The notes under the pieces are model-generated. The model made no database searches, was not told the origin of the DNA, and was given only the letters and a program-made list of their open reading frames with translations. A program made the translations under genes and the position numbers. A stretch of 64,000 bases of DNA, from NCBI GenBank assembly GCA_030583725.1, contig CP129472.1, positions 75 to 64,074 on the forward strand, given 5' to 3'. Position 1 is the first letter of the stretch. The number at the start of each line of letters is the position of its first letter. The stretch is from a bacterium (GTDB taxonomy: Bacteria; Patescibacteriota; Microgenomatia; UBA8517). Below are positions 16,317 to 62,524 of this stretch, one piece after another.

Positions 16317-16337
16317 GTCTTTCACTCGTGAAAACTT

Positions 16338-16366: not shown

Positions 16367-16371
16367 CAGGC

Positions 16372-17064: not shown

Positions 17065-17097
17065 CAGACTTCTCTAAAACATTTATAGTAATTATAG

Positions 17098-41668: not shown

Positions 41669-42121
41669 ATGAACAACAAAACAAAAAAAGGTTTTACCTT
41701 AGTCGAATTACTGGTCGTAGTTTCTTTAATTGGAGTTTTGGCAACTTTAGTTATTGCAAATATGAACTCAGCCAGAGAAAGGGCTAGAGATACTCAAAGA
41801 AAATCAGATTTTAGGAATATCCAAACAGCATTAAGGCTTTATTACAATGATAATGGAGGCTATCCAACCAGTAGTACAGATAATATTGTTGGCTGCGATG
41901 GTAATTGTGTATGGGGAGAGTCTTGGGTGAATGATGACGTGACTTATATGAACATATTGCCTGATGATCCCCTATCAAACCAGATATATAAATATACCTA
42001 TATAGATGATGATGATTATATACTTGAGGCTTGTCTTGAAAATGTCAGTGATGACAAAGGAATTGCAACCACTGACCTGGATTGGTGCCCGACTGGTTGG
42101 AAGTATGAAGTAAAACCATAA
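41669..42121 (+). CDS. Type IV pilin / GspG-like pseudopilin
   Basis: MNNKTKKG|FTLVELLVVVSLIGVLA...RARDTQRKSDFRNIQTALRLYYNDNGGYP. Confidence 0.75.
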   Translation: MNNKTKKGFTLVELLVVVSLIGVLATLVIANMNSARERARDTQRKSDFRNIQTALRLYYNDNGGYPTSSTDNIVGCDGNCVWGESWVNDDVTYMNILPDDPLSNQIYKYTYIDDDDYILEACLENVSDDKGIATTDLDWCPTGWKYEVKP

Positions 42122-43991: not shown

Positions 43992-44486
43992 ATGAAGAAG
44001 AAATTAATCAAGGGTTTAAGTTTAGTTGAAATATTAATAGTAATTTCAATCTTTGCAGTTATTGGCCTACTTTCTACAAGATCTGTGTTTTTAACATTAA
44101 GAGGTGCTAAAAAAAGTGATTCATTAGTTCGTGTTCGTGAGAATATCAATTATTCACTTGCAGTTATGGAAAGACAGATAAGAAGTGCCCAAAGTGTAAC
44201 TTGCCCTAATTTATCACCTACGGTTTTAGATTATGTTTCTATTGAAGGTAGCCAAACCTCATTTTCATGTACTTTGACAGGAAGTGACAGATATATAGCT
44301 TCAGGGTCTGCCAGATTAACATCAAATGACGTTTCTTTATTGTCTTGTAATTTTAGTTGTACACAGGATGACATAAATACACCACCTGTAGTTAGAATAC
44401 TGTTGGAGGCAACTGATTCTCAAATTACATCTGTTGAAGCAGGAACAGTTACTGCACAGACAGAAATAGTTTTGAGGAATTATTAA
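43992..44486 (+). CDS. Prepilin-type minor pilin (PilW/GspJ-like)
   Basis: MKKKLIKG|LSLVEILIVISIFAVIG with Glu+5. Confidence 0.6.
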   Translation: MKKKLIKGLSLVEILIVISIFAVIGLLSTRSVFLTLRGAKKSDSLVRVRENINYSLAVMERQIRSAQSVTCPNLSPTVLDYVSIEGSQTSFSCTLTGSDRYIASGSARLTSNDVSLLSCNFSCTQDDINTPPVVRILLEATDSQITSVEAGTVTAQTEIVLRNY

Positions 44487-45130
44487 GTCTTAAGCATAGC
44501 CAGTTGGTACTTTTTAACCTCATTTGTAATTACTGTTTTTGCTTCTTGCCATGAAAAATTGGGATCAAGTAACTTAATTGACCTTTTGGTTTCTTTACCT
44601 TCAGCATCATCATAATAAGTTAATGCACGTAGTATCAAATACTCATTAAAATTTTTGTACTTTCGATATGCGAAAGTCATCATCTCTTCAAGGCTAAAAT
44701 TATTTAATAAGTAAAAAATATCAATATAGTCCCTTTTTGCTGGTCTATGACTAACTGAGAGTAGTTTCATTGCTGCGATATCTTTTAGGCCTGCGAGATT
44801 TATGCCTATTTCTGTTTTTACCTTATCTATAAGAGGATACTGGTACCAAAAAAAAGAACATTCAACATCTTTTATTATTACAAATACCGTGTCTTTTTCT
44901 ATTAATGTCACTTTAGCGTCTGATCCAAAAACTTTACTTATTTTGTCTACTAGTTTGGCTGAGTCAAAATGTTTTTGAATAAAAAAGTCAAAATCTACTG
45001 ATGTTCTATGGCCAATTAATAAAGCAAGTGATGTCCCCCCTGCTAGATAGAATCCGTCGTTTGATAAAAATTTTAGCTTTGGCAAGACTTCTTGCTGGTT
45101 TTTATTCAAAATTGAAGTAAAAAATTTCAT
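44483..45130 (-). CDS. Nucleotidyltransferase AbiEii/AbiGii-like toxin family protein
   Basis: N-terminal FYLAGGTSLALLIGHRTSVDFDFF pattern typical of the AbiEii minimal nucleotidyltransferase fold. Convergent with the last pilin, with a 4-nt overlap. Confidence 0.55.
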   Translation of the reverse strand: MKFFTSILNKNQQEVLPKLKFLSNDGFYLAGGTSLALLIGHRTSVDFDFFIQKHFDSAKLVDKISKVFGSDAKVTLIEKDTVFVIIKDVECSFFWYQYPLIDKVKTEIGINLAGLKDIAAMKLLSVSHRPAKRDYIDIFYLLNNFSLEEMMTFAYRKYKNFNEYLILRALTYYDDAEGKETKRSIKLLDPNFSWQEAKTVITNEVKKYQLAMLKT

Positions 45131-45155
45131 AGTATTTAATACTGAATTTCATAAG

Positions 45156-45446
45156 TTAAGCCTCGAGGCTTATAATTGCCTTTTCAAATTTATTTTTTGA
45201 TAGGCTAATTTCAAATATATTCAACCAATACTTCAAGACACTACTCATCCAATATCCACGCAGGGGTGAGGCTACTGCATTTTTAATATCTCTCTTTGAA
45301 TAATTTTCTGTTAACCAGCGAAGAGCTTTACCATCCCCTTTATTTAATATCTCTGTAATAATTATCTCTCTGTCATTAACAATATCAAGTTGACTCAGAT
45401 CGTAAGAAGCTAAATATGGTTTTAAGTGTGAAGGTATGTTTGGCAT
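45156..45446 (-). CDS. Small hypothetical protein upstream of AbiEii-like gene (possible cognate partner/antitoxin)
   Basis: 96 aa, same strand, 25-nt gap to the toxin-like gene. No HTH recognised. Confidence 0.4.
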   Translation of the reverse strand: MPNIPSHLKPYLASYDLSQLDIVNDREIIITEILNKGDGKALRWLTENYSKRDIKNAVASPLRGYWMSSVLKYWLNIFEISLSKNKFEKAIISLEA

Positions 45447-45744: not shown

Positions 45745-46926
45745 TCACTTTATGAAATTTTGTATAATTGTTGAAAGTGCCACTGCATGAGGAAGATTAG
45801 AAAATGGCTTACTAATTATGAGGTTGTCGAGAATATATGATCTGTTTCTAAGTTCATTTGATCCTCTAAAACATTTATTAAATATTGAGGCGTAAACACT
45901 ATCGAAATCTAGATTAGGTTTTCTGTATATTTCTATTTCAAACAAAACCCTATGAAAGACTTTCAGAAATTCTCCGAAAATAGAATTATATACTTCGGTC
46001 GAAATTACCTTCAGAATATCCAATTCTATCTTTGTGGTTTGTAGTTCGTTAAAATATGAGCCCTTTTCCTCTGGTAAAATTTCATTTTTATAACATCCAA
46101 TACGATGAATTATATGAGATAATTCGTGAATAAGGTCAATTGACTGATGTTTTAAATTTTGATTTTTATCTATCTGCACCTTAAACCTATCAGTTTCTTT
46201 TATATAATTCGACTGTGAGAAGTCGCCAAATTCGATATCAACTTTTGATTTATACATACTAATAACAACGTTATTGCTTGACATATAATGTGTTACATCA
46301 CCTAAATTACCGAATGGAAAGTTTTTTAGATTACATAAAGAGCAATGATTTCCAAATTCGGAAAAAAAGTCTTTCTCTAGATTATTGTGTGTTGTATGAC
46401 TGTTACAAAATTCAATAACTTTATTATTATTTCTAATGAAATCCTTATAGACTGATTTAGGAATCTTATATAAATCCAGATAATAATCGACAAACACTTC
46501 GTATCCTTTTGCAAAGACTAACTCTTTCCTTTGCGCTATCAAGTTGGAAAATGATTCTTCAATTCTTTTGTACGGCAACCTAAATTTTTCCCAAACACCA
46601 CCTCTTTTTTCAGGTTGAGAACCCCAAATCTCATTTTGTAATTTAGTTCGAAGCTCGGGGTGGTAAGTAATAAAAAAATCCACAGATGCCTGGTAACTTG
46701 ATGGATTTATATTTTTAAATTCAACTTCTGCTCTATCGCGAACCTTTACATCGTATATCCAATTCCTAATATATAATTCTTCAGACATTAATTTTGGAGC
46801 TGCTAACTTTCTATATTTAATTCTTGCCTGTTTTGTAGATTCACTCACAAGGATATTCATGTCTATATTATATAAGGTAAATCGGAGAAAAGGTAATACG
46901 TGTGTATTTAAAGTGCTGGTGCACAC
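45745..46926 (-). CDS. Hypothetical protein with HExxH zinc-metallopeptidase motif
   Basis: LIHELSHIIHRIG. No other family assignment. N-terminal start uncertain. Confidence 0.45.
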   Translation of the reverse strand: MCTSTLNTHVLPFLRFTLYNIDMNILVSESTKQARIKYRKLAAPKLMSEELYIRNWIYDVKVRDRAEVEFKNINPSSYQASVDFFITYHPELRTKLQNEIWGSQPEKRGGVWEKFRLPYKRIEESFSNLIAQRKELVFAKGYEVFVDYYLDLYKIPKSVYKDFIRNNNKVIEFCNSHTTHNNLEKDFFSEFGNHCSLCNLKNFPFGNLGDVTHYMSSNNVVISMYKSKVDIEFGDFSQSNYIKETDRFKVQIDKNQNLKHQSIDLIHELSHIIHRIGCYKNEILPEEKGSYFNELQTTKIELDILKVISTEVYNSIFGEFLKVFHRVLFEIEIYRKPNLDFDSVYASIFNKCFRGSNELRNRSYILDNLIISKPFSNLPHAVALSTIIQNFIK

Positions 46927-46962
46927 CTTTTCTCCTTCCAGAAATCTATTTAATTGTTAGAA

Positions 46963-47214
46963 CTACCAACCGCCACCACCAAAATCTGGTGGAGGTACTC
47001 TGTCAGCATCTTGATTGCATCCACCACTACCGCCGCGACTGTAGTCACTTTCAATTCCTTGGTTGGAATTGATAGCGCCACCAGGGGTGTTGTGCAGATT
47101 TCCTTGCAGGTCTGGATACATGATCCGACCTCCTACGGGAATACCGCCTTGTGGAATTTGCTGGTCAGATTGATTGGCATCATTCGGATCGGGTAAACCA
47201 TTTGGTCCACTCAT
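46963..47214 (-). CDS. Small Gly/Pro/Asn-rich protein ending GGGGW
   Basis: 83-aa low-complexity ORF (GGIPVGGRIMYPDLQGNLHNTPGGAINSNQG...SRGGSGGCNQD...PPPDFGGGGW). No signal peptide. Could be a spurious ORF. Confidence 0.3.
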   Translation of the reverse strand: MSGPNGLPDPNDANQSDQQIPQGGIPVGGRIMYPDLQGNLHNTPGGAINSNQGIESDYSRGGSGGCNQDADRVPPPDFGGGGW

Positions 47215-47583: not shown

Positions 47584-48015
47584 TTAAGCGCCAAAATCCA
47601 TTATAGGTAATCCAACATATTTTTGAATTGATTGAATATTATGTATTACTTTAATATTTTGCTTATCGTGAAAATCAAAATCTTTTTCGACTACTTTTTT
47701 AACTTTTTTAACATCTGTCTTTACAGATGTCATGTCTTTTTGTAATTTCTCTACACCATCTTTAAGTCCTGACACGTCAGTTTTAAGTCCTGACACGTCA
47801 GTTTTAAGTCCTGACACGTCAGTTTTAAGTCCTGACACGTCAGTTTTAAGTCCTGACACGTCAGTTTTAAGTTCTGACACGTCAGTTTTAAGTCCTGACA
47901 CGTCAGTTTTAAGTCCTGCTGTATCAGTTTTTAATATCTTTATATCAGATATAATTGGCTTCAGCTTAGTATCGAGTACTTCACTAATAGAATTTAGATC
48001 TTGTTTAGTTAACAT
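47584..48015 (-). CDS. Tandem heptad-repeat protein (LKTDVSG x about 9), coiled-coil-like
   Basis: Encoded by 8 tandem copies of a 21-bp unit. Flanking sequence is non-repetitive. Confidence 0.55.
   Translation of the reverse strand: MLTKQDLNSISEVLDTKLKPIISDIKILKTDTAGLKTDVSGLKTDVSELKTDVSGLKTDVSGLKTDVSGLKTDVSGLKTDVSGLKDGVEKLQKDMTSVKTDVKKVKKVVEKDFDFHDKQNIKVIHNIQSIQKYVGLPIMDFGA
47762..47929. repeat. Tandem repeat, 21-bp unit TTAAGTCCTGACACGTCAGTT x8 (6 perfect, 2 variant)
   Basis: Read directly from sequence. In-frame within CDS 47584-48015. Confidence 0.9.
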
Positions 48016-48048: not shown

Positions 48049-48093
48049 ATTATGGTGCCACTTCTGCCCATTTGGCCCTTTTGAATTGAAGTT
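48049..48093. repeat. Copy 3 of conserved ~45-nt element (forms the last 12 codons and stop of CDS 48050-49675)
   Basis: Reverse complement encodes ...LQFKRAKWAEVAP*. Confidence 0.7.
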
Positions 48094-49675
48094 GATTTGG
48101 GAAAAGCATCATTTGATCAGGTGCAAATTCAACAAGTTCTGCAGGAGTTGAGTTGTCTAGTAGTTCTCTTTCTAGCAATACACTACCATATGAGGCCAAG
48201 GATCCTCTTAAGTGCAGTTGTGTATCCCCTGCCCCTGTTGATATATTATTATCAGCCATATAAATTCCTTCAATCGCAGGACTACCACTAACTGCAGAAT
48301 CAATTGTTATATTTCCATTTACAAAGCTTGCAAAAAAACCAACTCCATCTGTTAGGTTTATATTACCGTTGATATTAAAGTTGCCTTCTTCAACAAACAA
48401 GACTACTTTTCTGGTAGTTATATCAATATCCCCCACAGTATCTAAGTTGCCAACAACCTTGTACCACTCATATCCATTTGAATCAACAACTACTCCCCCA
48501 CTTGGTAAGTCATTAATGTCATTAAAAACAATATCGTTAGGTATTAAATTTTCAAAATAACTATAATTAAATATTCTACTTAATGTTGAAGTAGTATTAG
48601 CATTCCAAATATTAACAGATATCCTTTCAGGAGTGTCTAAGTATAAATTAAGAGAAGTACCATAGACTGCAACACCTGAAAAACCACCTAAGCCATCACT
48701 TAAGAAATAATTACCAGCGGGAACTAAAGAACTTAATACCCCATTTGTTGTAACATCACCATCCATTACTTGCCACCATGGCTCGTTTGCAACAGGTGTT
48801 AAAAAACTATAATTTGTAGAAGAAGAACAACTTACACTTTGATAATTAACAATTTTTACAAAGTAAATGGTATCAGGAAGTAGGGGTGAAACAAAAGGAT
48901 AGAAGTCAGTACTACTTGCCAAATTTGCATTAACAGTACAACTAGTTCCTGTACCACAATTATTAGTTACATCGCTTTGCGTAGTTGAAACATATAAATT
49001 TTGAGACGCTCCATTAGTACCAGTTGTCCAAGTTAATAAATCATCACTAAAACTTACAGCAGAAGGTGCTGTGGTATTACAAGTAGAAAGACACTCATAG
49101 GTGTTGGCTGTGCGTCCGCTACATGTTGTAGTAGCAGGCCAACAATCCCATCTAATACAACTAGTTCTACCCGTATTTGGGTTGGTCCAATACTGTTCAC
49201 ATTCTCCACAACCTGCGGGTGTTGTTGTACATCCACACTCTGATCCTTCACTTTGTGCCGATCCTAGTTGAAACCATCCATTACAATGCCAGATCGAACC
49301 CTTACTTACACACTGTGAACCAATCAGATTATTTGTCTTTACTGTCCCCGAAGGACAGTTTACGACCCATGTGGGGTTGCATTGCGACTCACAACTTCTA
49401 CAACTCCCATTATTCGTCGTCCCGCACGGGCACGCGCTAGGGGGTGGAGTTGCACTACCACCACAGTTATCACCCCAAAGTGTGCAGGATGGTGATGAAC
49501 CACCAGAACAGTTGTCTGCTCCGCCACATGTACAATCACCACTTGCTTCTGAGCCACTTGAGGTTACACATATACAATCATCCAAACATTGAGCATTTAC
49601 ATCTTTTGTGGAAAAACCAAAAAGAAAAAAAATTGCAAAAATTAGAAATAATATAATTTTAAATATTTTTGACAT
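48050..49675 (-). CDS. Large secreted Cys-rich hypothetical protein
   Basis: Signal peptide (MSKIFKIILFLIFAIFFLFGFS). About 40 Cys in the N-terminal 200 aa. No domain recognised. Confidence 0.55.
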   Translation of the reverse strand: MSKIFKIILFLIFAIFFLFGFSTKDVNAQCLDDCICVTSSGSEASGDCTCGGADNCSGGSSPSCTLWGDNCGGSATPPPSACPCGTTNNGSCRSCESQCNPTWVVNCPSGTVKTNNLIGSQCVSKGSIWHCNGWFQLGSAQSEGSECGCTTTPAGCGECEQYWTNPNTGRTSCIRWDCWPATTTCSGRTANTYECLSTCNTTAPSAVSFSDDLLTWTTGTNGASQNLYVSTTQSDVTNNCGTGTSCTVNANLASSTDFYPFVSPLLPDTIYFVKIVNYQSVSCSSSTNYSFLTPVANEPWWQVMDGDVTTNGVLSSLVPAGNYFLSDGLGGFSGVAVYGTSLNLYLDTPERISVNIWNANTTSTLSRIFNYSYFENLIPNDIVFNDINDLPSGGVVVDSNGYEWYKVVGNLDTVGDIDITTRKVVLFVEEGNFNINGNINLTDGVGFFASFVNGNITIDSAVSGSPAIEGIYMADNNISTGAGDTQLHLRGSLASYGSVLLERELLDNSTPAELVEFAPDQMMLFPNQLQFKRAKWAEVAP

Positions 49676-54494: not shown

Positions 54495-55172
54495 ATGAAC
54501 ACAAATACTAAAAACGAAATCAACTTTCTTTTAAAGCCTGTAATTATTTTTTCTTCAGTTTTAATTCTAATTATTTTTTCTTTTGTTATTGGTTTAAGAA
54601 ATATATCCAATTTGCAAAGCAATATAACAGCAAACAAGACAACAGAAAACACATTGTCTAAAAAAGTATTGGCTTTAGAAACTGTTAGTAGGACCCTACC
54701 AGGAGATGTTACTTTTTTGGATGTGGTTTTACCAAGTAAAGGTTCAGTTTTATATGCTCTAAGTCAGATCAGAACACAATCTTTAAATAATAATTTAAAC
54801 GTTTCAAACCTAAAAACAGGAAATGTAATACCTGAAAGTTCTGGAGTCATGAAGTCTTCAGTTAGCTTCGAGGTAGAAGGTCAAGAGTCTGACGTTTTTA
54901 CTTTTTTAAGTTCTTTGGGTACAGTACTCCCTTTAATTAATATTGATAAAGTTAGTTTTAATAGCTCTCTTGGATTATCAAGGGCTAATATATCAGTTAA
55001 TGTCTATTCAGCAGAACTTCCTAAAACAATACCATCTTTAACAGGTGTTGTTAGTGAGTTAACAAGTCAAGACATCACTCTTTTAAATGAGTTGGCAGGG
55101 TATACTTTGCCACAATTTATAGAACCAACAATTGAAGAAGCTCCATCACAGAAAACTGATCCATTTAACTAA
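54495..55172 (+). CDS. pilO: PilO-like type IV pilus assembly protein
   Basis: Single TM (VIIFSSVLILIIFSFVIG) then periplasmic domain. Position after pilM/pilN. Confidence 0.55.
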   Translation: MNTNTKNEINFLLKPVIIFSSVLILIIFSFVIGLRNISNLQSNITANKTTENTLSKKVLALETVSRTLPGDVTFLDVVLPSKGSVLYALSQIRTQSLNNNLNVSNLKTGNVIPESSGVMKSSVSFEVEGQESDVFTFLSSLGTVLPLINIDKVSFNSSLGLSRANISVNVYSAELPKTIPSLTGVVSELTSQDITLLNELAGYTLPQFIEPTIEEAPSQKTDPFN

Positions 55173-55187
55173 AAAAACACCTATATT

Positions 55188-55424
55188 TTAATTAGTTGGA
55201 TTAACTAGAAGAATAATCTTTTTCTTTTCTAAAGTTGCTTTAATGCGAAGTAGATTCCTAATCGCTTTAATAATTTTTCCTTGTTTTCCAATGACCATTC
55301 CCCCATCTTCGTCACTTGTCTTAACTGTTAAAGTAACTACAGATCCATTGTCATCTTCTATAATTTCATATTTAGAATCTTTACTTAATATATTTTTAAT
55401 GATGAAGTCTAGTAAATCTTTCAT
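55188..55424 (-). CDS. KH-domain RNA-binding protein (YlqC/UPF0109 family)
   Basis: MVIGKQGKIIKAIRNLL (GxxG KH loop). 78 aa, next to rpsP as is typical. Confidence 0.75.
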   Translation of the reverse strand: MKDLLDFIIKNILSKDSKYEIIEDDNGSVVTLTVKTSDEDGGMVIGKQGKIIKAIRNLLRIKATLEKKKIILLVNPTN

Positions 55425-55427
55425 AAA

Positions 55428-55658
55428 TTACTTTTTAAGTTCTAATACCTTTTTGACACCACTAGTCACGATTGCACCTTTTTTAACCCAATCATCAAAT
55501 TTTTTCTTGTCAATTTTTGAAGTTTTTTCCTTTGGATCATAGCTACCAATAATATCCAAGTTTTTCCCATCAACCTTGCTTCTTGTTGGAGCAATAATTA
55601 CTCTATAAAAAGCACTTTTCTTTGCACCCACACGTGATAATTTAATTGAAACTGACAT
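55428..55658 (-). CDS. rpsP: 30S ribosomal protein S16
   Basis: MSVSIKLSRVGAKKSAFYRVIIAPTRSKVDGKNLDIIGSYDP. Confidence 0.9.
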   Translation of the reverse strand: MSVSIKLSRVGAKKSAFYRVIIAPTRSKVDGKNLDIIGSYDPKEKTSKIDKKKFDDWVKKGAIVTSGVKKVLELKK

Positions 55659-55664
55659 ATATAG

Positions 55665-56321
55665 TTACGATGATACCATATTTTGAAGCGCGTTTGAAGC
55701 AGCATCTTGTTCTGCCTCTGATTTACTTCTTCCCACACCTAGTGCATTTATTTTGCCATTAATGATAACTTCAATTGTAAATTGCTTGTTATGATCAGGT
55801 CCTTCCTCTGATTTGACTTGGTACTTTGGAGCTGGCATATTACTTGCCTGAACCTTTTCCTGTAGTAGACTTTTAGGGTCTTTAAGTGGCATTTTTGCTT
55901 TCTGGTCCACATCTATAAGTATGTTTTGGTCTATAAACTCTTTTGCTTTAGTAATACCTTGATCTAAGTAAAGAGCACCTATTACTGCTTCAACAGTGTC
56001 GGCAAGTAGTGAGGAGTTGTTTCTACCCCCACCGTCTTCTTCACCTTTTGATAGGAATATTTCTTGACCCAGATTTAACTTTTCTGCCACTTGGCTCAGG
56101 TTTTTAGTGTTAACCAGGTTTGAACGAAGGGCTGTTAAGTACCCCTCTTCTTCATTTGGAAATCGATTATAAATTTCTTCTGAAACTACAAATTCTAAAA
56201 TTGCATCTCCTAAAAACTCAAGTCTTTCATTAGTTCCCCTAGCCTTATCATTTTCATTAACCCAACTTCTGTGGGTTAAGCTTTGTAAATATAAATTTTT
56301 ATCTTTAAAGTGTTTTTTCAT
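55665..56321 (-). CDS. rnc: Ribonuclease III
   Basis: RNase III signature ERLEFLGDAILEFVVSE and C-terminal dsRBD. Confidence 0.9.
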   Translation of the reverse strand: MKKHFKDKNLYLQSLTHRSWVNENDKARGTNERLEFLGDAILEFVVSEEIYNRFPNEEEGYLTALRSNLVNTKNLSQVAEKLNLGQEIFLSKGEEDGGGRNNSSLLADTVEAVIGALYLDQGITKAKEFIDQNILIDVDQKAKMPLKDPKSLLQEKVQASNMPAPKYQVKSEEGPDHNKQFTIEVIINGKINALGVGRSKSEAEQDAASNALQNMVSS

Positions 56322-56658
56322 ATACCGTTCCTAATACTCCATTTACAAAAGAACCTGATGATTCAGAACCGAATTCTTTTGCTAATTCTACAGCTTCATC
56401 AATAATTACTTTGGGTGGAGTATCTTCATTTTTTAATTCATAAATAGCAAGATGTAGTATAGCTAAATCTATTTTGTTTATCTTTTCAATTGGCCATGTC
56501 GGAGCTGAATCAACAATTATCTTGTTTAACTTTTTTTCCTGCTTTTTAATTTTTACAACTAATTCAGGTAACCTTTCTTGTTTAGTAAAACTTTCAGCAA
56601 AAAGAAACCTAACAGCTTCCCTACGTCTTAAGTGTCTTGGGTCAGTTGCAGTCTTCAT
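56305..56658 (-). CDS. nusB: Transcription antitermination factor NusB
   Basis: RRREAVRFLFAESF...IDEAVELAKEFGSESSGSFVNGVLG. Confidence 0.8.
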   Translation of the reverse strand: MKTATDPRHLRRREAVRFLFAESFTKQERLPELVVKIKKQEKKLNKIIVDSAPTWPIEKINKIDLAILHLAIYELKNEDTPPKVIIDEAVELAKEFGSESSGSFVNGVLGTVYEKTL

Positions 56659-56668
56659 GAGTCAATTA

Positions 56669-56824
56669 TTATTTGTATGTTCCACAATGAGGACAGGCCT
56701 TGTGAGGTTCACGAAGTTTGCCACATGATTTACATTTAGATACAGCAGAGAGGGAAGCCTTAAAAGTACTTCTCCTTCTAGTTGTTCGTCCGTGACTATG
56801 TTTCTTCTTTGGTAATGGTGCCAT
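56669..56824 (-). CDS. rpmF: 50S ribosomal protein L32
   Basis: Reverse complement encodes MAPLPKKKHSHGRTTRRRSTFKASLSAVSKCKSCGKLREPHKACPHCGTYK* (51 aa, CxxC...CxxC). Below the ORF-track threshold; a 77-aa shadow ORF in another frame is listed there. Confidence 0.8.
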   Translation of the reverse strand: MAPLPKKKHSHGRTTRRRSTFKASLSAVSKCKSCGKLREPHKACPHCGTYK

Positions 56825-56833
56825 ACATCATGA

Positions 56834-56947
56834 TTATACATTGTTGATAGCTTCTGATGCAAGCTTGATAATTTCAGTTTGTGACCAGTCTGCAATTTTT
56901 AAGTTTCCAAAACCACTTTGCTTTGTTCCCAGTACATCTCCAGCCCT
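56834..56947 (-). pseudogene. Duplicated 3'-terminal fragment of recG (about 100 nt, about 94% identical to 59346-59445); direct repeat
   Basis: Nucleotide alignment GATAATTTCAGTTTGTGACCAGTCTGCAATTTTTAAGTTTCCAAAACCACTTTG... in both places. Encodes ...AGDVLGTKQSGFGNLKIADWSQTEIIKLASEAINNV*, versus the recG C-terminus ...GAGDVLGTKQSGFGNLKIADWSQTEIIKQASEAVNLTH*. Confidence 0.8.
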
Positions 56948-57007
56948 ATAAAGTTTTTGCAACAATTCTCTATTGAATATAGCAATCAAAAGCTTGACAA
57001 TAAGATG

Positions 57008-57013
57008 TATAAT
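57008..57013 (+). promoter_or_regulatory. TATAAT -10 box 8 nt upstream of the rSAM start codon with no SD (possible leaderless transcript)
   Basis: TATAAT at 57008-57013, ATG at 57022, no AGGAGG-like sequence between. TTGACA at 56991-56996 is too close (8-nt spacer) to be a canonical -35. Confidence 0.25.
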
Positions 57014-57021
57014 TACAAGAA

Positions 57022-58392
57022 ATGTCTTCCGAATATAAACCAGAGATAAAAGAGCTTCTGTCTTATGGAAAATATTTTCTAAAATCTGGAGTATTTTTGG
57101 TTGAGGGTCATTCAAGATGTGCGTTATACGATATAAATTCAGGAAATGTTTATTCGTTAGATAAAAATGCACAAAATGTTTTAACTGGTCAATCTGAAAA
57201 TGCTAACTTCTGGGAAAAATTAGTAGGAATGGGATTGTGTGCAGATAACAATTCTAATGAGAAACCAGTATTAAACGAATTAGAAAGCAAATCTACTCTA
57301 CAATTTGCTTGGTTTGAAATAGTTTCAAAGGATTGTAACGAAAGATGTTTACATTGTTACGGTGACTTTATGCCTCCAATTTTTCAAGAAAAAACAACTC
57401 AAAACGATGAAGTTGGGTTGACTTTCAATCAATGGAAAAATCAAATTAAAAATGTTTACGATTTGGGTTGTGAAACATGTCAATTTATAGGTGGTGAACC
57501 CTTTTTGTATAGAGGTGAAGGTGGAGAAACTGTTTTAGAATTAGCAGAATATGCAAAACAATTAGGTTTCAAATTTATTGAAATTTTTACAAACGGAACA
57601 TTACTTACTCAAGAAAAAATTGATCGTATAAAAGATTTAGGAATTAATATTGCTGTTTCTTTATATTCTACTGCTCCTGAAATTCACGACAAAATTACAA
57701 GAACACGAGGAAGTCATAAAAAGACTATGGAAGCCTTAGAAAGGCTCAAAGAAACAGGAGTACCTGTTAGGGTTGAAACTATACTAATGAAACAGAATGA
57801 AGAAAGTGCTGAAGAAACGCAAAAGTTAGTAGACCAAATGGGATTTTCTCACAAAAGGCTTGATGTTTTAAGACAAAATGGTAGAGGAGATAATCTTAAT
57901 TTATTGCCAAGTAATAGATCATTATTAAAAAATGGAATTATGACTGCACCAAATTTTTATATAAATAAGGAGATGTTGTCAAAAAACTTACACAACAATA
58001 GTTGTTTATCTGGAAAAATTGCAATCACAGATAATGGAGATGTTTTACCTTGTGTTTTCTCAAGAGATCAAGTAGTTGGTAATGTTCTTGAAAAATCACT
58101 CTTGCAAATTATAGATGAAGTTAAATTAAAAAGTGTTTGGGATAATACAAAAGATAGTGTTCAAGTTTGTAAAGATTGTGAATTTAGATATTGTTGTACA
58201 GATTGCAGACCCTCATCATTAGGGGCAAATCAAAATACTGGAGAATATCTAACTGCTCCTTATCCAAAATGTGCTTACAATCCATATGATGGAAAATGGG
58301 GAAAGGGATATTGGAAATTAGATTTTGAAGGAAAACCTATATATATTAATATTTTGAAAGGAGGTGAAGAAATAATTGAAAGCAGAACTTAA
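57022..58392 (+). CDS. Radical SAM / SPASM-type peptide-modifying enzyme with N-terminal RRE (PqqD-like) region
   Basis: CX3CX2C cluster CNERCLHC near aa 105-112. Gly-rich SAM-binding motif FIGGEPFLY. C-terminal auxiliary-cluster cysteines (CLSGK...PCVFSRD...VCKDCEFRYCCTDCRP...KCAY). N-terminal ~95 aa resembles a leader-peptide recognition element. Confidence 0.8.
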   Translation: MSSEYKPEIKELLSYGKYFLKSGVFLVEGHSRCALYDINSGNVYSLDKNAQNVLTGQSENANFWEKLVGMGLCADNNSNEKPVLNELESKSTLQFAWFEIVSKDCNERCLHCYGDFMPPIFQEKTTQNDEVGLTFNQWKNQIKNVYDLGCETCQFIGGEPFLYRGEGGETVLELAEYAKQLGFKFIEIFTNGTLLTQEKIDRIKDLGINIAVSLYSTAPEIHDKITRTRGSHKKTMEALERLKETGVPVRVETILMKQNEESAEETQKLVDQMGFSHKRLDVLRQNGRGDNLNLLPSNRSLLKNGIMTAPNFYINKEMLSKNLHNNSCLSGKIAITDNGDVLPCVFSRDQVVGNVLEKSLLQIIDEVKLKSVWDNTKDSVQVCKDCEFRYCCTDCRPSSLGANQNTGEYLTAPYPKCAYNPYDGKWGKGYWKLDFEGKPIYINILKGGEEIIESRT

Positions 58393-58627
58393 TTTAGAAC
58401 CAGAAATTGTTTTAGTAACAGCACAAGGTGCAACTGATGGGGTAATAGTAGCACCATGTACACCAAGTGCTTGTACACCAAATGTTGCATGTAATCCTAA
58501 CACTAATTGTGCACCGTTTAATTGTGCACCAGCGTTAAGACCATGTATGCCAGATTGTGCTCCTGCAACTCCTTGTTATCCAACACAAGGACCATGTGCA
58601 CCAGCATCAAGCTGTTATCCTCGTTAA
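58376..58627 (+). CDS. Cys/Pro-rich precursor-like peptide (83 aa), candidate RiPP substrate
   Basis: TTG start 8 nt after AAGGAGGTGA, overlapping the rSAM gene by 17 nt. 27-aa Cys-free leader then a core with 10 Cys, every one in a C-x-P triplet (CTP, CTP, CNP, CAP, CAP, CMP, CAP, CYP, CAP, CYP). Confidence 0.7.
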   Translation: MKAELNLEPEIVLVTAQGATDGVIVAPCTPSACTPNVACNPNTNCAPFNCAPALRPCMPDCAPATPCYPTQGPCAPASSCYPR

Positions 58628-58628
58628 G

Positions 58629-59297
58629 TTAACTTGGATTAGTGGTGAGTAGATAATCAGGCCAATTATTTGGGTATTTAGTAATTATTTTAGTTGTGTT
58701 TATTATTGCAAAATAATGTTGGTCATTATTTTTAAATAATGATTTGTTTAAGTTAATAAAAAATTTGTCCAGATTTTGTTTATGGTTTGGCCAAAAGATC
58801 TTACTCGCCGAATATTCAGAACATGAAGCAAAAAGTTCTCCATATTTGTCTAATCTATCAGAATAGACATGTCCAAACTCATGTAAAATAGTTGCATAAT
58901 AGCTTTCTTTTGTATGATATGGGTCATTTAAAGTTTTAGAATATTCGTTATGTATTTTAGTAAATGGAGTTAGTAATCCTCCACAAGGACCATTTATGTT
59001 TTTACCAGTTTTTTGTTTCAAAATATTTTTAAACTCTTCGATGTATATACCAGACATCCAAACCTTATGAGATAGATCATCTATTTTTTTAATATTGTGT
59101 AAAAATTTAGATAGCTTGTATTTATTATTAGTTCTTAACCAAACATAAAGATATCTTGAGTCAAAACTGATTACAGGAATATTTTTGATTCTATCTTTGC
59201 ACTTAAATATGTAATTCAATTTTGGATTCCAAAGTGTTTTTAAAGCATTTTCTATTGCAAGTAAGTCATTTTGTGAAGCAATATAGCATTCGAACAT
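58629..59297 (-). CDS. Putative zinc metallopeptidase (HEFGH motif), candidate leader peptidase
   Basis: ATILHEFGHVYSDRL HExxH motif. 222 aa. Convergent, 1-nt gap from the peptide gene. Inside the repeat-flanked insert. Confidence 0.5.
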   Translation of the reverse strand: MFECYIASQNDLLAIENALKTLWNPKLNYIFKCKDRIKNIPVISFDSRYLYVWLRTNNKYKLSKFLHNIKKIDDLSHKVWMSGIYIEEFKNILKQKTGKNINGPCGGLLTPFTKIHNEYSKTLNDPYHTKESYYATILHEFGHVYSDRLDKYGELFASCSEYSASKIFWPNHKQNLDKFFINLNKSLFKNNDQHYFAIINTTKIITKYPNNWPDYLLTTNPS

Positions 59298-59327
59298 GAT
59301 TATATTATACCAAATTTATTGCATAAC

Positions 59328-59445
59328 TCAGTGCGTAAGATTTACAGCTTCTGAAGCTTGTTTGATAATTTCAGTTTGTGACCAGTCTGCAATTTTTAAG
59401 TTTCCAAAACCACTTTGTTTTGTTCCTAGTACATCACCAGCCCCA
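59328..59445. repeat. recG 3'-end copy of the ~100-nt direct repeat (partner at 56834-56947)
   Basis: See the pseudogene fragment entry. The two copies flank 56948-59327. Confidence 0.8.
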
Positions 59446-61256
59446 CGCAGTTTTAGATCAAGTTCTGCAAGTTCAAACCCTGAAGTTGTCTTAGTTAGTG
59501 CTGTAAGCCGTTTAGTTGCCTTGTCTGAGTCGTTCTCTGTGAACAATAGACAATATGACTCTTTTTCACCTCTCCCTACCCTACCTCTAAGTTGGTGGAG
59601 TTGGGCAAGGCCAAATCTATCTGCACCTTCTATTAACATAATAGTTGCATTTGGGATATCTATTCCTACCTCAACAACTGGGGTTGAGAGTAGAATGTCT
59701 AGTTTTTTACTTTTAAATTCATCAAGTACTTTATTTTTTTCAACTTCTTTCAATTTTCCATGAAGTAGTCCAATTTCAAGTTGTGGAAAAATAACCTTTA
59801 AGTTTTCATATTCCTTTTTTACAGACTTAACTGATTTTAGTGTTTCTGCTTCTGACTCTTCAACTAATGGACATATGATAAATGCTTGAGAACTATTGTC
59901 TTTAATAGTTTTTTTAATCCAGTCATATGCTTTCTCTCTTTTGTCATTTGGAACAAGCCATGTTTTTATTTTCTGTCTGTTTTTGGGCAACTCATCTAAA
60001 ATGGACAAATCCATATCAGAAAATAAAGTTTGGGCAATCGTTCTTGGTATAGGTGTAGCTGTCATTGTTAATAAATGTGGATTAATTTTTTGCATAAAGT
60101 TAACTTGTTTGACTCCGAACTTGTGCTGTTCATCAATTACTAATAGCCCAACTTTTTCAAAAGTTTTATTTAATAGCGCATGTGTTCCTACAATTATGTC
60201 ATTAACGCCTAGGTCTGATTTTACTACTGTACCTGTTATTAAAGATATTCTAATGGGGAGATTTTTAAATAGTTCCTTTAGTGTTTGATAGTGTTGGTTT
60301 GCAAGTATCTGGGTTGGAGCAAGAAAGACAGTCTGAAACCCAGAAAGAAAAGTTGTGTAGGCTGAAATTGCAGAGACTATTGTTTTTCCACTACCAACGT
60401 CACCCTGTAGTAGCCTATTCATTGGGGTGTTTTTGGATAGGTCATTAAATATTTCATCTAAATTTTTAACCTGTGAATTAGTCAACTTAAAAGGTAAGGA
60501 TTTGATAAAAGTATCAATCAACTTTTTGTTTACTTTAATTACTACTCCCCTTTTCTTAATTAGTTTGTTTTTTCTTTCTCTAGCTTTAACAAGTAGGTCA
60601 AAGAATTCATTAAAGGCTAGTCGCTCTTTTGCCTTCTCAGAACTTTTCAGGTTTTTAGGAAAATGAATATTATAAATCGCTTCTTTAAAACTTATCAGAT
60701 CGTTTTTGCTTAAAATGTCTTGACTTAAAAAGTCTTTAACTTCAATTCTATCTAGTGCATATTTAATTCTTGCCTTTAGCCACTTTGAAGTTAAGCCTGC
60801 AGTTTCAGGATATACCCCTACAATTTTAGCAGTGTGAATTGTTTCTTGGTTTTGATCAATCCTCTCAAATTGTGGTGAGAAAAAAGCAAGTTTTCTGTTA
60901 AACCAACTAGGTTTACCAGATATCATAAGTTTGATACCTGGGTAAAGCATTTTGGTTAGATAGGACTGGTTAAACCAGACCAAGTAAATACTTCCGGTTG
61001 TATCTTTAATTTGTCCAATTTGCATTGATCTTCCTGTTTTTGTTGGTTGGTTTTTAATTGAAGTTACTTCCCCAAAAACTGATACTATTTCATCAACTTT
61101 TAAGTCGTTAATTTTTGTAACCTTGCTAAAATCCAAATATCTGTGTGGAATGTGATGAAGTAAATTAGATACTGTTTCAATCCCCAGTATTTTTAATTTT
61201 TTTTGATAATTTGGTCCAACAAATGGAAGATCAGATACGGAGTCTGTAAGATTCAT
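59328..61256 (-). CDS. recG: ATP-dependent DNA helicase RecG
   Basis: Wedge/OB N-terminus, Walker A LLQGDVGSGKT, DEQH box, helicase C-terminal LRGRVGRG, C-terminal GDVLGTKQSG. 642 aa. Confidence 0.9.
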   Translation of the reverse strand: MNLTDSVSDLPFVGPNYQKKLKILGIETVSNLLHHIPHRYLDFSKVTKINDLKVDEIVSVFGEVTSIKNQPTKTGRSMQIGQIKDTTGSIYLVWFNQSYLTKMLYPGIKLMISGKPSWFNRKLAFFSPQFERIDQNQETIHTAKIVGVYPETAGLTSKWLKARIKYALDRIEVKDFLSQDILSKNDLISFKEAIYNIHFPKNLKSSEKAKERLAFNEFFDLLVKARERKNKLIKKRGVVIKVNKKLIDTFIKSLPFKLTNSQVKNLDEIFNDLSKNTPMNRLLQGDVGSGKTIVSAISAYTTFLSGFQTVFLAPTQILANQHYQTLKELFKNLPIRISLITGTVVKSDLGVNDIIVGTHALLNKTFEKVGLLVIDEQHKFGVKQVNFMQKINPHLLTMTATPIPRTIAQTLFSDMDLSILDELPKNRQKIKTWLVPNDKREKAYDWIKKTIKDNSSQAFIICPLVEESEAETLKSVKSVKKEYENLKVIFPQLEIGLLHGKLKEVEKNKVLDEFKSKKLDILLSTPVVEVGIDIPNATIMLIEGADRFGLAQLHQLRGRVGRGEKESYCLLFTENDSDKATKRLTALTKTTSGFELAELDLKLRGAGDVLGTKQSGFGNLKIADWSQTEIIKQASEAVNLTH

Positions 61257-61262
61257 ATGTTT

Positions 61263-61364
61263 TTAAAGATATATCAAAAGTGGCATAAAGGTTCCTGCTA
61301 AAAGTGCAAGACCTGCAATAACTGCCAAGACCTTAAATATTCTTTTATGTTTTCTTGTAATCAT
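61263..61364 (-). CDS. Small single-TM protein (33 aa)
   Basis: MITRKHKRIFKVLAVIAGLALLAGTFMPLLIYL*. Start overlaps the tyrS stop (TAATG). Ends 6 nt before the recG start. Confidence 0.35.
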   Translation of the reverse strand: MITRKHKRIFKVLAVIAGLALLAGTFMPLLIYL

Positions 61365-62524
61365 TATACTAGTGTACCAAATATTTTCTTCCCAATTTTT
61401 ATTTTATCACCCTTTTTAAGTTTATAGTTTACATCAGAAACAACATCTCCATTTATTGTTAGCCCACCTTGTTGAATTAAACGTTTTGCATCACTTGCAG
61501 ATTTTAAATTTGTAAATGGTGCTATTGTTTCTGCTAATGATTTTAATTTTTTAATTTTAAGTTTATATTCTGGATCATGTTTTGCAAACGATTTTTCAAA
61601 ATTATTTTTTGCCTTGATGGCTTGTCTCTTATTTGTTAGTTGAGTTGCAATAATTAAGGCCAATTCTTTCTTTATTTGAATTGGGTTAACCCCACTTTTT
61701 AATGCTTTTTTAAAATCATTGATTTTGGTAGATTCTAAGTCTGTTGCATTTTCAAGATACTCAGGTATTAAATTGTCAGGTAAAGACATAGTCTTACCAT
61801 ATATCTCTTCAGCACTATCTGTCATCCAAATTGCATTTCCCCAACTTTTACTCATTTTTCTACCATCTGTGCCTGTTAAATATCCGGTAACAAGGATAAA
61901 TGACTCTTTATTTCTAAGGCTTGATTGAAGCGACCTCCCTGCTTGCATATTAAATGTTTGATCTGCCCCCCCAATTTGAATATCGGTGTCCATTATATAA
62001 CTATCATAGCCTTGCATTACAGGATAAAGTGCTTCGTGGAGTCCTACTTTCTTTTTGTCACTCAAACGTTTCTTGATTAATTCTCTACCCGCAAACTCAC
62101 CAAAAGAAAACTCTTGGGCAAGTCTAACTATATCTGCAAATTTTAATTTTGAAAGCCATGTACTATTAAATTTAACCTTAACTTTACTAAAATCTAATAT
62201 TTTACTTGCTTGTTTTTTATAGGTTTTTAAATTTTGTCTTATTTCTTGGTATGTTAGTACCGGACGTTCTTTATCTTTGTCTGATGTATCTCCAATCAAA
62301 GCAGTAAAATCACCAATCAAAAATGTAACATTGTGGCCTAATTCTACAAACTCTTGAAGCTTTCTTAAAGCCACTGCGTGGCCTATATGAATTCTTGTGG
62401 CCGTTGGGTCAATTCCCAAATAGACATTTAATTTTTTTCCAGAATTTAAAAGCTTTGATAATTTAACGTTGTCTGGAATTATGTTTGTAACCCTTCTTGT
62501 TATAACTTCGTCAATTTTACTCAT
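61364..62524 (-). CDS. tyrS: Tyrosyl-tRNA synthetase
   Basis: HIGH motif (TATRIHIGHAVAL), KMSKS, C-terminal S4 domain (RLIQQGGLTINGDVVSD). Confidence 0.9.
   Translation of the reverse strand: MSKIDEVITRRVTNIIPDNVKLSKLLNSGKKLNVYLGIDPTATRIHIGHAVALRKLQEFVELGHNVTFLIGDFTALIGDTSDKDKERPVLTYQEIRQNLKTYKKQASKILDFSKVKVKFNSTWLSKLKFADIVRLAQEFSFGEFAGRELIKKRLSDKKKVGLHEALYPVMQGYDSYIMDTDIQIGGADQTFNMQAGRSLQSSLRNKESFILVTGYLTGTDGRKMSKSWGNAIWMTDSAEEIYGKTMSLPDNLIPEYLENATDLESTKINDFKKALKSGVNPIQIKKELALIIATQLTNKRQAIKAKNNFEKSFAKHDPEYKLKIKKLKSLAETIAPFTNLKSASDAKRLIQQGGLTINGDVVSDVNYKLKKGDKIKIGKKIFGTLV

Follow-up and report, generated by a model that had tools for sequence, protein, structure and literature searches.

In an ultra-small bacterium of the CPR (Patescibacteria), a three-gene cassette of about 2.4 kb has inserted into the 3' end of the housekeeping gene recG, giving recG a foreign end and leaving the native end on the far side of the insert. 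The window, as used below, is the whole 64,000-nt stretch of DNA analysed. A conspecific contig has the empty site, the two recG tails that bracket the insert are reciprocal mosaics of native and foreign sequence, and the insert itself is free of a recombinase. The locus is probably best accounted for by a single-crossover insertion through a recG-like arm on the incoming DNA.

The insert, its repeats and its genes

A repeat search of the window, followed by a base-by-base count, revealed that 56844-56957 and 59341-59454 form a direct repeat of 114 nt, with 101/114 positions identical (89%, 13 mismatches), a start-to-start spacing of 2497 nt and a longest run without mismatch of 56 nt. It was the sole long direct-repeat family reported, and its sequence is the in-frame coding 3' end of recG (...RGAGDVLGTKQSGFGNLKIADWSQTEIIK...). 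A blastn search of the repeat against the full 64-kb window returned two copies only, the second with E = 8e-36 and the next best match being 13 nt long. Low complexity, which an earlier note on this DNA had named as what would undo its reading, was therefore ruled out, as was chance, the repeat being a coding recG tail with no third copy in the window. The same note had described a same-orientation repeat of about 100 nt of the recG 3' end beyond rpmF, as was found, but its figure of about 6 mismatches was too low: 8 were counted within 56849-56947 / 59346-59445. The features of the locus are as follows.

59328-61256, minus strand: recG (642 aa), intact; NCBIfam RecG equivalog 2e-226
59341-59454, minus strand: proximal repeat copy (attL-like); native 1-28, identical core 38-93 (59417-59362), foreign 94-114 (59361-59341)
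59419-59426, minus strand: inferred interval of the crossover within the proximal copy, GGAACAAA, bounded by repeat positions 28 and 37
59298-59340, minus strand: left cassette end; last recG codons CTT ACG CAC TGA, then promoter-like TGGTATAAT
58629-59297, minus strand: HEFGH protein (222 aa); putative zinc metallopeptidase, candidate leader peptidase
58376-58627, plus strand: precursor peptide gene (83 aa); conserved leader MKAELNLEPEIVLVTAQGATD, core with about 11 Cys, mostly C-x-P
57022-58392, plus strand: putative radical-SAM/SPASM peptide maturase (456 aa); PF04055 (Radical_SAM) 8e-26, PF13186 (SPASM) 2e-7
56946-57021, plus strand: right cassette end; promoter-like TTGACA (56994-56999) and TGTATAAT (57006-57013) ahead of the radical-SAM start codon
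56844-56957, minus strand: distal repeat copy (attR-like); foreign 1-28 (56957-56930), core 56920-56865, native recG end 94-114 plus stop codon (56864-56834)
56834-57172, minus strand: spurious chimeric ORF (112 aa, GTG start); RecG match (NCBIfam, E about 1e-3) limited to the last 34-38 residues
56833-56862, minus strand: rpmF promoter-like signals in the displaced native tail; -35-like TTGCAT (56862-56857), 18 nt, TG plus TATAAT (56840-56833)
56669-56824, minus strand: rpmF (ribosomal protein L32), directly after recG at empty sites; Pfam Ribosomal_L32p 1e-13

Gene identities were assigned by Pfam and NCBIfam profile searches. Between the repeat copies lie only the genes for a radical-SAM/SPASM enzyme, an 83-aa Cys/Pro-rich precursor and the HEFGH protein, as noted earlier, with no other gene-like ORF of at least 30 aa. 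The chimeric ORF that the earlier note called spurious is also present; the RecG tail accounts for its last 38 residues, and the remainder is antisense to the start of the radical-SAM gene. Both Pfam matches of the radical-SAM protein exceed the cut-offs. The protein falls far under all NCBIfam cut-offs (StsB 91 bits vs 625, AlbA 69 vs 850), by which no curated RiPP subclass such as sactipeptide or ranthipeptide was assigned, and its nearest solved relative is SkfB, at just 1.8e-7. The precursor ORF overlaps the stop codon of the radical-SAM gene; in loci L014-L034 the peptide is 57-98% identical and adjoins the radical-SAM gene, or the HEFGH gene where the former is absent, and its leader and Cys positions are conserved in seven loci.

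The Pfam search returned no family for the 83-aa peptide or for the HEFGH protein, whose peptidase family has 129 representatives among 1.84 billion proteins. The structure model of the HEFGH protein has a thermolysin-like, gluzincin metallopeptidase fold, pointing to a putative metallopeptidase that is a candidate for removing the leader. As this was the sole unannotated gene, the insert holds no recombinase, in agreement with the earlier claim that no integrase lies inside; neither the ORF list, Pfam nor the HEFGH structure model revealed a transposase, transfer gene or recombinase there. Because a metallopeptidase, a Cys/Pro-rich precursor and a radical-SAM/SPASM maturase are encoded together, the cassette is likely to produce a ribosomally made, modified peptide. 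It resembles sactipeptide and ranthipeptide RiPP clusters in that a radical-SAM/SPASM enzyme adjoins a short Cys-rich precursor and a predicted peptidase; the SPASM-domain enzyme and the adjacent Cys-rich precursor with a conserved leader are those expected of a radical-SAM/SPASM RiPP system, although no curated subclass fits. Unlike in curated systems, the enzyme scores far under the NCBIfam cut-offs and the peptidase family is without a Pfam model. The composition of the insert is mildly deviant (GC 30.7% vs 34.6%; trinucleotide distance rank 116/124), and an argument for foreign origin from composition was dropped, the insert being only a mild outlier.

The empty site and the imported recG end

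The empty site was found in the conspecific contig L031 (RecG 634/639 identical, 99%; rpmF and nusB 100%), where rpmF directly follows recG. Bases 1-2008 of L031 match window 61353-59346 at 99.1%, bases 1911-5954 match window 56946-52904 at 98.3%, and the 98-nt overlap of the two alignments is the duplicated segment. The empty rpmF-recG junction that the earlier note had suggested looking for is likewise present in nine more distant relatives, with a recG-to-rpmF gap of about 12-30 nt (L001, L003, L004, L005, L012, L013, L015, L028, L029). A duplicated recG tail without the insert, which according to that note would speak against a gain, was seen in no relative examined. Judged from these alignments, the presence or absence of the cassette is a strain-level polymorphism, which points to an insertion recent in the species' history. 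In L030 the cassette lies at the same recG / rpmF junction, where no host-tail repeat was found. The 155-nt GC-rich recG-rpmF spacer of L033 was considered as a decayed cassette; single local matches to the cassette scored 32 vs a shuffle mean of 21, the spliced-alignment test was non-significant, and the spacer stays a lead only.

The RecG protein of the window is 99% identical to its counterpart in L031 (P0023/L031) save for the C-terminus, which reads KQASEAVNLTH* vs KLASEAINNV* in L031. An exact-protein look-up of the window RecG returned no match because the imported C-terminus differs from the database allele. The displaced copy ends ...KLASEAINNV*, protein-identical to L031. Against L031, the proximal copy has mismatches only at repeat positions 37 and 94-112 and the distal copy only at 7, 8, 9, 11, 19 and 28, each with the addition of an L031-private change at 46. 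Thus native sequence makes up the upstream part of the recG-attached copy and foreign sequence its downstream part; in the displaced copy the order is reversed. The last 21 nt of the proximal copy hold 6 differences to the L031 allele, vs 12 in the 1991 nt upstream (0.6%; Fisher p = 2e-8), so this 3' part did not diverge in place. With the native end displaced, these 6/21 mismatches bear out the proposal that the element carried a replacement gene end.

The imported end spans 59418, or at latest 59361, down to the stop at 59328, and the closest recG tail to it is that of L033 (31/42 nt; KQASEAVNITK*). At position 37 the proximal copy has A and both the distal copy and L031 have G; A is likewise the base in the KQASE-type tails of L032 and L033. 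Should position 37 have mutated later, the crossover interval would widen to 59362. If it is foreign, the exchange fell in an interval of 8 nt at the extreme end of the block of identity, an outcome of about 1-in-8 under homologous exchange; such an interval would equally suit a site-specific enzyme. The first codons of the distal copy read LYRAGDV where the LRGAGDV motif is otherwise invariant.

At the left end of the cassette, the -10 of the promoter-like signal lies at 59309-59304, 6 nt ahead of the HEFGH start codon, and cassette copies at other sites have a conserved AATTTGGTATAAT-N6-9-ATG in front of the HEFGH gene. The right end, where TTGACA-N8-TGTAyAAT-N7-9-ATG is conserved in the copies elsewhere, stops about at ...CAAAAACTTTATAG, at the junction with the recG-like arm, and this junction aligns to the internal right-end sequence of L034. 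A CAAAAACT..TATAG stretch is common to the cassette/host-tail junctions of the window and L034 (local P about 0.003); the stretch in the window aligns equally well with the internal right-end sequence of L034. Decayed recG homology reaching to about 57005 beyond the distal copy was considered and dropped, since that stretch is the cassette's conserved radical-SAM promoter region. There was no tRNA or Rfam RNA at the insert junctions, and in the repeat search no inverted repeat paired the two ends of the insert. In the displaced native tail, the TG plus TATAAT element (56840-56833) is followed 8 nt downstream by the rpmF ATG, and the arrangement ...GCTTGCATCA...TGTATAAT...ATGGCACC is conserved at the recG-rpmF junction of L001, L003, L004, L012, L013 and L031, suggesting that the displaced recG tail may serve as the rpmF promoter.

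Routes of insertion

The same cassette occurs at seven different junctions within one 25-kb syntenic neighbourhood, six of them, in relatives, besides recG / rpmF; its radical-SAM protein is 75-89% identical at the other junctions. The L034 copy is flanked by a repeated 3' end from a different host gene, one homologous to window 48050-49675 (541-aa surface-protein gene). The seven junctions and the different host tail in L034 argue against one fixed attachment site. A host-tail repeat is found at 2/7 known cassette sites only: the L016 nusB / rnc site has just a weak, non-significant 28-nt similarity, and candidate repeats in the pilin clusters of L014 and L019 were attributable to pilin paralogues. 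Across Woesebacteria-like lineages the cassette is both conserved and mobile, and it always stays near the neighbourhood of pilus and ribosomal-protein genes. A type IV pilus cluster lies in the window; the Pfam families T2SSE, T2SSF, N_methyl and Peptidase_A24 were identified in its L014 orthologues. The window also encodes a Xer-like tyrosine recombinase (17098-18030), 39 kb from the insert, which could in principle act in trans.

We propose that the incoming DNA would have included, as an arm, a copy of about 100 nt of another lineage's recG 3' end, and that one reciprocal crossover between this arm and the resident recG tail would have taken place within or at the edge of 56-65 identical bases. 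The resident recG body would thereby have been joined to the foreign end, so that recG now ends KQASEAVNLTH*, and the resident end moved 2.5 kb downstream. The displaced end is non-coding, yet retains the promoter-like signals that would drive rpmF, so that both flanking genes would stay functional. The 56-nt core is longer than the 25-35 bp quoted as the minimal segment for RecA-mediated exchange (PMC6382021). We infer that the substrate was a circle of the cassette with one arm, integrated in Campbell fashion, and that the crossover would have been made by the host's homologous recombination (RecA) and not by a site-specific integrase. The earlier note had read the locus as the footprint of an element integrated into the recG 3' end, and the empty site, the foreign end and the reciprocal mosaic support this. 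Of its comparison with islands inserted at tRNA or gene 3' ends, integration with a replacement end holds; the site-specific integrase that the comparison implies is less well supported, since a cassette found at other sites, once with a different host-gene tail, fits homology-driven insertion better. Homology-driven (Campbell-type) integration is thus favoured over a dedicated integrase, though unproven.

Another account, unlikely but deserving consideration, is a stripped-down integrative element of the CIME kind, with attL and attR made at a short defined core by a site-specific tyrosine or serine recombinase in the genome or a helper. The architecture matches that of 3'-end integrators with a replacement end, such as e14 at icd/icdC (PMC13626634), and fits the definition of a CIME, in which attL and attR are kept and the integration genes lost (PMC5704250); the inferred switch within an 8-nt interval and the Xer-like recombinase in the window are also in its favour. 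However, an integrase accompanies the cassette in 0 of about 20 loci, and no integrase-bearing element lies at recG / rpmF in about 15 relatives, many loci in both sets being known from short contigs only. Furthermore, no cassette relatives were found in the viral, phage and plasmid collections IMG/VR, INPHARED and PLSDB, and the seven junctions, with another host tail in L034, leave no constant attachment sequence.

It is rather improbable that the cassette and its flanking repeats were already together in a related donor and entered as linear DNA by a double crossover within both tail cores, the duplication then being older. The mosaic left by this route would not differ from that of one crossover, the type IV pilus cluster of the window would be compatible with DNA uptake, and the foreign arm's upstream edge, invalid as recG (LYRAGDV vs LRGAGDV), is what a non-coding donor remnant would show. 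Against it, two exchanges in the same short core are required, the origin of the duplication is merely shifted back one step, and a donor of that structure was not found among the relatives examined.

We give very little credence to an assembly artefact, in which an empty chromosome and a separate cassette molecule or strain with a recG-like arm were threaded together through the 56-nt core. Mis-threading at a shared repeat yields exactly such a reciprocal mosaic, and the ends of the related contig L034 are identical over 25 nt, giving it a loop topology, which a 35-nt flanking repeat explains equally. But if position 37 is foreign, as the A in L032 and L033 suggests, both switches fall within 8 identical bases, unbridgeable by an assembler k-mer; moreover, the cassette is without a replication gene for its upkeep as a free molecule, and the record of the HEFGH protein puts its gene on an 841,695-bp contig. 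One assembly is the basis for the integrated state, and mis-threading of a chromosome with a free circle, both containing the 56-nt core, could produce an identical picture.

A long target-site duplication or local tandem duplication of the native recG tail with later divergence in place, although a direct repeat bracketing an insert exactly resembles a target duplication, can virtually be dismissed on the differences in the proximal 3' part (6/21 vs 0.6% in the rest of recG, p = 2e-8), the way in which the two copies carry their mismatches at opposite ends and share a 56-nt core free of any (P about 0.001 if mismatches were placed at random) and the absence of terminal inverted repeats and a transposase; the conspecific L031 allele rules out target-site duplication with in-place divergence. 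Also rejected were a transposon or insertion sequence (no inverted repeats, no transposase, and a repeat that is 114 nt long and partly foreign) and homology-facilitated illegitimate recombination duplicating recipient DNA, the upstream part of the distal copy being foreign.

Known systems and the gain of genes in small genomes

In Escherichia coli, e14 and phage 21 integrate in the 3' end of icd and supply an alternative gene end, and the original survives as the icdC fragment; the excision of e14 recombines its two ends (PMC13626634, citing Hill et al. 1989). The present insert likewise lies within a housekeeping gene's 3' end, brings a slightly different replacement end that leaves recG intact, and has the original end as a pseudogene fragment on its far side. 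The 3'-end direct repeats, the unoccupied site and the differing replacement end of the e14/icd type are thus all present, and a site-specific recombinase of its own is not. By contrast, e14, a prophage remnant of 15 kb, brings a site-specific integrase and is excised on SOS induction, whereas the insert is 2.4 kb without a recombinase, its host is a CPR bacterium, and the displaced end has apparently been kept to serve as promoter for the gene downstream.

The insert shares with the CIMEs of Streptococcus and other Firmicutes the flanking attL/attR-like repeats, made of the 3' end of the target gene, and the lack of genes for integration or transfer (PMC5704250). CIMEs, however, derive by decay from ICEs or IMEs and have a site in common with a resident element that encodes an integrase; here neither such a partner nor a constant site was found. 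Campbell-type (insertion-duplication) integration of non-replicating circular DNA has in common with our proposal that one homology region suffices and that a single crossover with a circle gives hybrid direct repeats. Unlike the travel of a natural cassette, Campbell-type and homology-facilitated cases are mainly laboratory outcomes or rare transformation events, and classical homology-facilitated illegitimate recombination usually deletes recipient DNA, whereas here there is a duplication, and the distal copy has a foreign upstream part that is not expected from such a pathway.

More tentatively, the cassette may move as a minimal unit that can do without a recombinase gene, a captured host-gene 3' end being its portable homology arm; we hold this doubtful but worth stating. 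Recombination between the flanking copies would free a circle keeping one hybrid copy, and host machinery would insert that circle into the same gene of another cell, repairing the gene and sparing the neighbour's promoter. Lineages would differ in the arm gene (recG here, the 541-aa surface-protein gene in L034). If true, this would explain the spread of one cassette over seven junctions in a 25-kb neighbourhood beside the type IV pilus cluster of CPR genomes.

The genomes of CPR bacteria are tiny and densely packed, and to our knowledge little is known of how they gain accessory genes. The locus offers a dated, base-resolved case of such a gain in an ultra-small bacterium. Because the incoming DNA would have brought its own housekeeping-gene end, recG and the rpmF promoter in the last codons of recG would have been left undamaged. 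The locus also flags an undescribed, predicted peptide-modification cassette with a new metallopeptidase family. If ordinary homologous recombination was at work, small biosynthetic cassettes could pass from one genome to a related one with no integrase, transposase, phage or plasmid involved, and captured pieces of conserved genes would be their landing pads.

The recG tail repeat and the empty site

A repeat search of positions 55000-62000 revealed a single long direct-repeat family with minus-strand copies at 56844-56957 (distal, 9 nt upstream of rpmF) and 59341-59454 (proximal, attached to recG). The copies are 114 nt long, 89% identical, and 2497 nt apart from start to start. The repeat corresponds to the 3' end of recG in frame, and blastn against the whole window found two copies only (E = 8e-36). 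Base by base, the copies have 13 mismatches and a longest identical run of 56 nt (P about 0.001 for such a run if 13 mismatches are placed at random). The earlier note's description of the repeat holds except for the mismatches in its ~100-nt version, which number 8 and not about 6. As it had also stated, only three genes lie between the copies, and one copy forms part of a spurious chimeric ORF.

Features of the recG-rpmF region
56669-56824, rpmF (Pfam L32p)
56834-57172, minus strand, chimeric ORF of RecG tail and antisense radical-SAM sequence
57022-58392, plus strand, Radical_SAM+SPASM protein gene, between the copies
58376-58627, plus strand, 83-aa peptide gene, between the copies
58629-59297, minus strand, HEFGH protein gene, between the copies
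59328-61256, minus strand, recG (NCBIfam RecG, 2e-226)

RecG was then used to scan a genome and a metagenome collection, supplemented by later look-ups. In nine relatives (L001, L003, L004, L005, L012, L013, L015, L028, and L029), rpmF starts ~12-30 nt after recG. A protein search with RecG returned P0023, identical to the window RecG at 634/639 residues and one residue shorter, with the C-terminus ...IIKLASEAIN(NV) versus ...IIKQASEAVNLTH in the window. Its contig, L031 (Logan SRR22388160), has the gene order recG-rpmF-nusB-rnc-rpsP-KH-pilO/N, with rpmF and nusB 100% and rnc 99.5% identical to the window. At the DNA level, L031 1-2008 matched window 61353-59346 (99.1%) and L031 1911-5954 matched window 56946-52904 (98.3%), the 98 nt aligned twice being the repeat. 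L031 is a conspecific strain without the insert, and it shares with the nine other relatives the direct succession of recG and rpmF by which the earlier note expected an empty site to be recognized. The rpmF-nusB junction is variable as well: L001 carries a 7-kb insert there (10078-17264) with ATP-grasp-like and other genes, and the spacing is about 600 nt in L004 (8089-8689), 259 nt in L015 (4712-4969), and 10 nt in the window.

Native and imported parts of the two copies

Repeat positions were numbered in the recG direction, with L031 as the reference. The proximal copy has mismatches at positions 37, 94, 96, 97, 100, 110, and 112 and diverges completely beyond 114, while the distal copy has mismatches at 7, 8, 9, 11, 19, and 28; a change at position 46 is private to L031. 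The copies read as a clean reciprocal mosaic, the proximal one native upstream and foreign downstream and the distal one its mirror image, with a shared identical core in between. The foreign 3' part differs from the conspecific allele at 6/21 positions and the remaining recG sequence at 12/1991 (Fisher p = 2e-8), excluding divergence in place after simple duplication and bearing out the earlier claim that a replacement gene end was carried in. A single exchange between positions 28 and 37 is consistent with both switch points:

59426-59419 (proximal) and 56929-56922 (distal), candidate exchange interval, GGAACAAA

Were position 37 a mutation that arose afterwards, any point up to position 93 could be the site of exchange; the narrow interval is favoured because the A at position 37 is common to L032 and L033, contigs of the two relatives with KQASE-type tails.

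Among about 60 RecG relatives, the usual C-terminus up to the stop is ...KLASEAVNNV, the native type, and the KQASE tails are ...KQASEFVLDCY (P0024, L032) and ...KQASEAVNITK (P0055, L033). The present recG end of the window is nearest in DNA to that of L033 (31/42 nt; 25/39 for the conspecific native end). The first foreign-arm codons of the distal copy encode LYRAGDV in place of the LRGAGDV found in every RecG examined; therefore, the upstream edge of the arm is not functional recG sequence, being either an illegitimate joint to the cassette right end or a remnant already decayed in a donor. Alignment with L034, a further cassette-bearing contig, suggests that ...CAAAAACTTTATAG is part of the cassette right end, with true homology to recG beginning at about position 12.

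At the joint of cassette right end and host tail, CAAAAACT(0-3 nt)TATAG occurs in both the window (56946-56959) and L034 (2462-2487) despite their different host genes (local P about 0.003); it may have arisen by chance, belong to the cassette end, or be left over from an earlier site. In L033, whose recG ends in the KQASE tail, a 155-nt GC-rich recG-rpmF spacer (2716-2870) contains a hairpin-like stretch, GCCGGCAGGCAGGCCGGC. Its weak similarity to the radical-SAM start/promoter and to the sequence upstream of rpmF in L030 is not statistically secure, and the spacer may be a decayed cassette.

The cassette at other sites and its proteins

Cassette sites were located from HEFGH-homologue loci and mapped onto window genes.

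Cassette sites
recG-rpmF junction: window and L030 (same orientation in L030, tail repeat absent)
nusB-rnc junction: L015-L018
between pilO and KH: L024-L027, cassette inverted
after the KH-domain gene: Woesebacteria contigs L028 (4829-5662) and L029 (6001-6834), HEFGH gene only (277 aa, 51% identical, no radical-SAM gene nearby)
between the pilin orthologues of window 41161-41622 and 41669-42121: L014, L019
upstream of holB: L020, L021, radical-SAM gene absent, 29-nt imperfect repeat on both sides
3' end of the gene homologous to window 48050-49675: L034

All seven distinct sites fall within window-equivalent 31.7-56.8 kb, one 25-kb syntenic neighbourhood, in contrast to the 841,695-bp contig recorded for the HEFGH protein. 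In L020, which has the HEFGH and peptide genes, the direct repeat on either side (1861-1889 and 3022-3050, 25/29 identical) includes a GC-rich motif, CGCGCG/TGCGTGG, that is unusual. The HEFGH homologue of L028 is followed by a carbamoyltransferase gene.

The closest cassette copy, L034 (87% nucleotide identity over 2.3 kb), is a 2497-nt Logan contig with the same 25 nt at both ends (1-25 and 2473-2497). In a k = 31 graph, such ends are expected when an exact direct repeat of 35 nt brackets a unique segment, and a mixture of chromosome and circle would also yield them; L034 represents either an insertion flanked by repeats or a circle. The repeated sequence corresponds to the 3' end of the gene for a homologue of the 541-aa Cys-rich secreted protein of the window (window 48050-48073) and encodes its C-terminus, ...PQKLMYRRTKWA (...NQLQFKRAKWAEVAP up to the stop in the window protein); 22 nt match window 48052-48073 perfectly. 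L034 thus represents a second, independent site with the same architecture and a different host gene tail.

Several other genes were observed in this part of the window, all on the minus strand. Where the pilin cluster ends, at 44483-45446, an AbiEii-family nucleotidyltransferase toxin (Pfam 1e-14) adjoins a DUF6922 protein, likely forming a type IV toxin-antitoxin pair. At 45745-47214, a 393-aa ORF with a HELSH motif, matching no Pfam family, adjoins an 83-aa Gly/Pro-rich small ORF, and the two may be another peptidase/peptide pair. Directly downstream of the gene for the Cys-rich protein, 47584-48015 encodes a coiled-coil protein of 143 aa in which the heptad GLKTDVS is repeated in tandem about seven times.

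The radical-SAM protein contains Radical_SAM and SPASM domains (Pfam) and scored far under every curated NCBIfam cut-off; among solved relatives, the best match was the sactipeptide maturase SkfB (1.8e-7). The precursor peptide, kept in seven loci, combines a conserved leader, MKAELNLEPEIVLVTAQGATD, with a core containing about 11 Cys, most of them in C-x-P. No family was assigned to the HEFGH protein by Pfam, NCBIfam, or PADLOC, and its family is small (129 representatives at E <= 0.001 among 1.84 billion). Because its AlphaFold model is confident (pLDDT 92.4, from 22 homologues) and H139, E140, H143, and E154 do not vary across the aligned sequences, it is predicted to be a gluzincin-type metallopeptidase, not a recombinase, and plausibly acts as the leader peptidase. 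With a radical-SAM enzyme and a peptide as the other products, the insert lacks an integrase, as first noticed from the sequence.

Origin of the duplication and its consequence for recG and rpmF

One reciprocal exchange between the chromosome and a molecule bearing the cassette and one recG-like arm would produce the observed structure. Together, the empty site and the reciprocal mosaic support the original proposal that an element integrated into the recG 3' end and brought a replacement end; the closest textbook parallel for a replacement gene end is e14/icd-icdC of E. coli (PMC13626634). We favour host homologous recombination as the probable agent, because no recombinase occurs in the insert or any of its relatives, the attachment sequence varies between sites, the 56-65-nt identical block exceeds the 25-35 bp quoted as the minimal segment for RecA exchange (PMC6382021), and a search for phage, plasmid, or ICE context for the cassette found none. 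In a CIME-like scenario (PMC5704250), a site-specific recombinase would act in trans. This would fit the narrow switch interval and has a candidate in the Xer-like tyrosine recombinase encoded at 17098-18030 (plus strand; Pfam Phage_integrase 2e-44, N-terminal SAM-like domain), the sole recombinase noticed among the selected ORFs screened and 39 kb from the insert; we consider this route unlikely. Double crossover from a donor already having the repeats is quite improbable and merely shifts the origin of the duplication back one step. An assembly artefact would imitate the mosaic, but is hard to square with a switch confined to 8 identical bases and is very improbable.

The final codons of recG in L031 and the relatives include ...GCTTGCATCA...(18 nt)...TGTATAAT, and the rpmF ATG lies 8-9 nt past the TATAAT. 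From their conservation, these signals resemble a -35/extended -10 promoter from which rpmF would be transcribed almost without a leader; a simple consensus scan did not call it because the -35-like hexamer fits only 3/6 positions. The HEFGH gene has TGGTATAAT 6 nt ahead of its start codon and the radical-SAM gene has TTGACA-N8-TGTATAAT-N8 ahead of its own, both kept in cassette copies at other sites. The TG(n)TATAAT element 6-9 nt upstream of start codons (window 56833-56840, 57006-57013, and 59304-59312) suggests leaderless or near-leaderless transcripts from promoters embedded in the last codons of the preceding gene.

Insertion between recG and rpmF without tail duplication would harm recG or the putative rpmF promoter; with the duplication, recG has gained a new end and rpmF has retained the old one. 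The locus is an integrase-less 2.4-kb biosynthetic cassette of a CPR genome that uses the captured end of a host gene and is polymorphic within a species.
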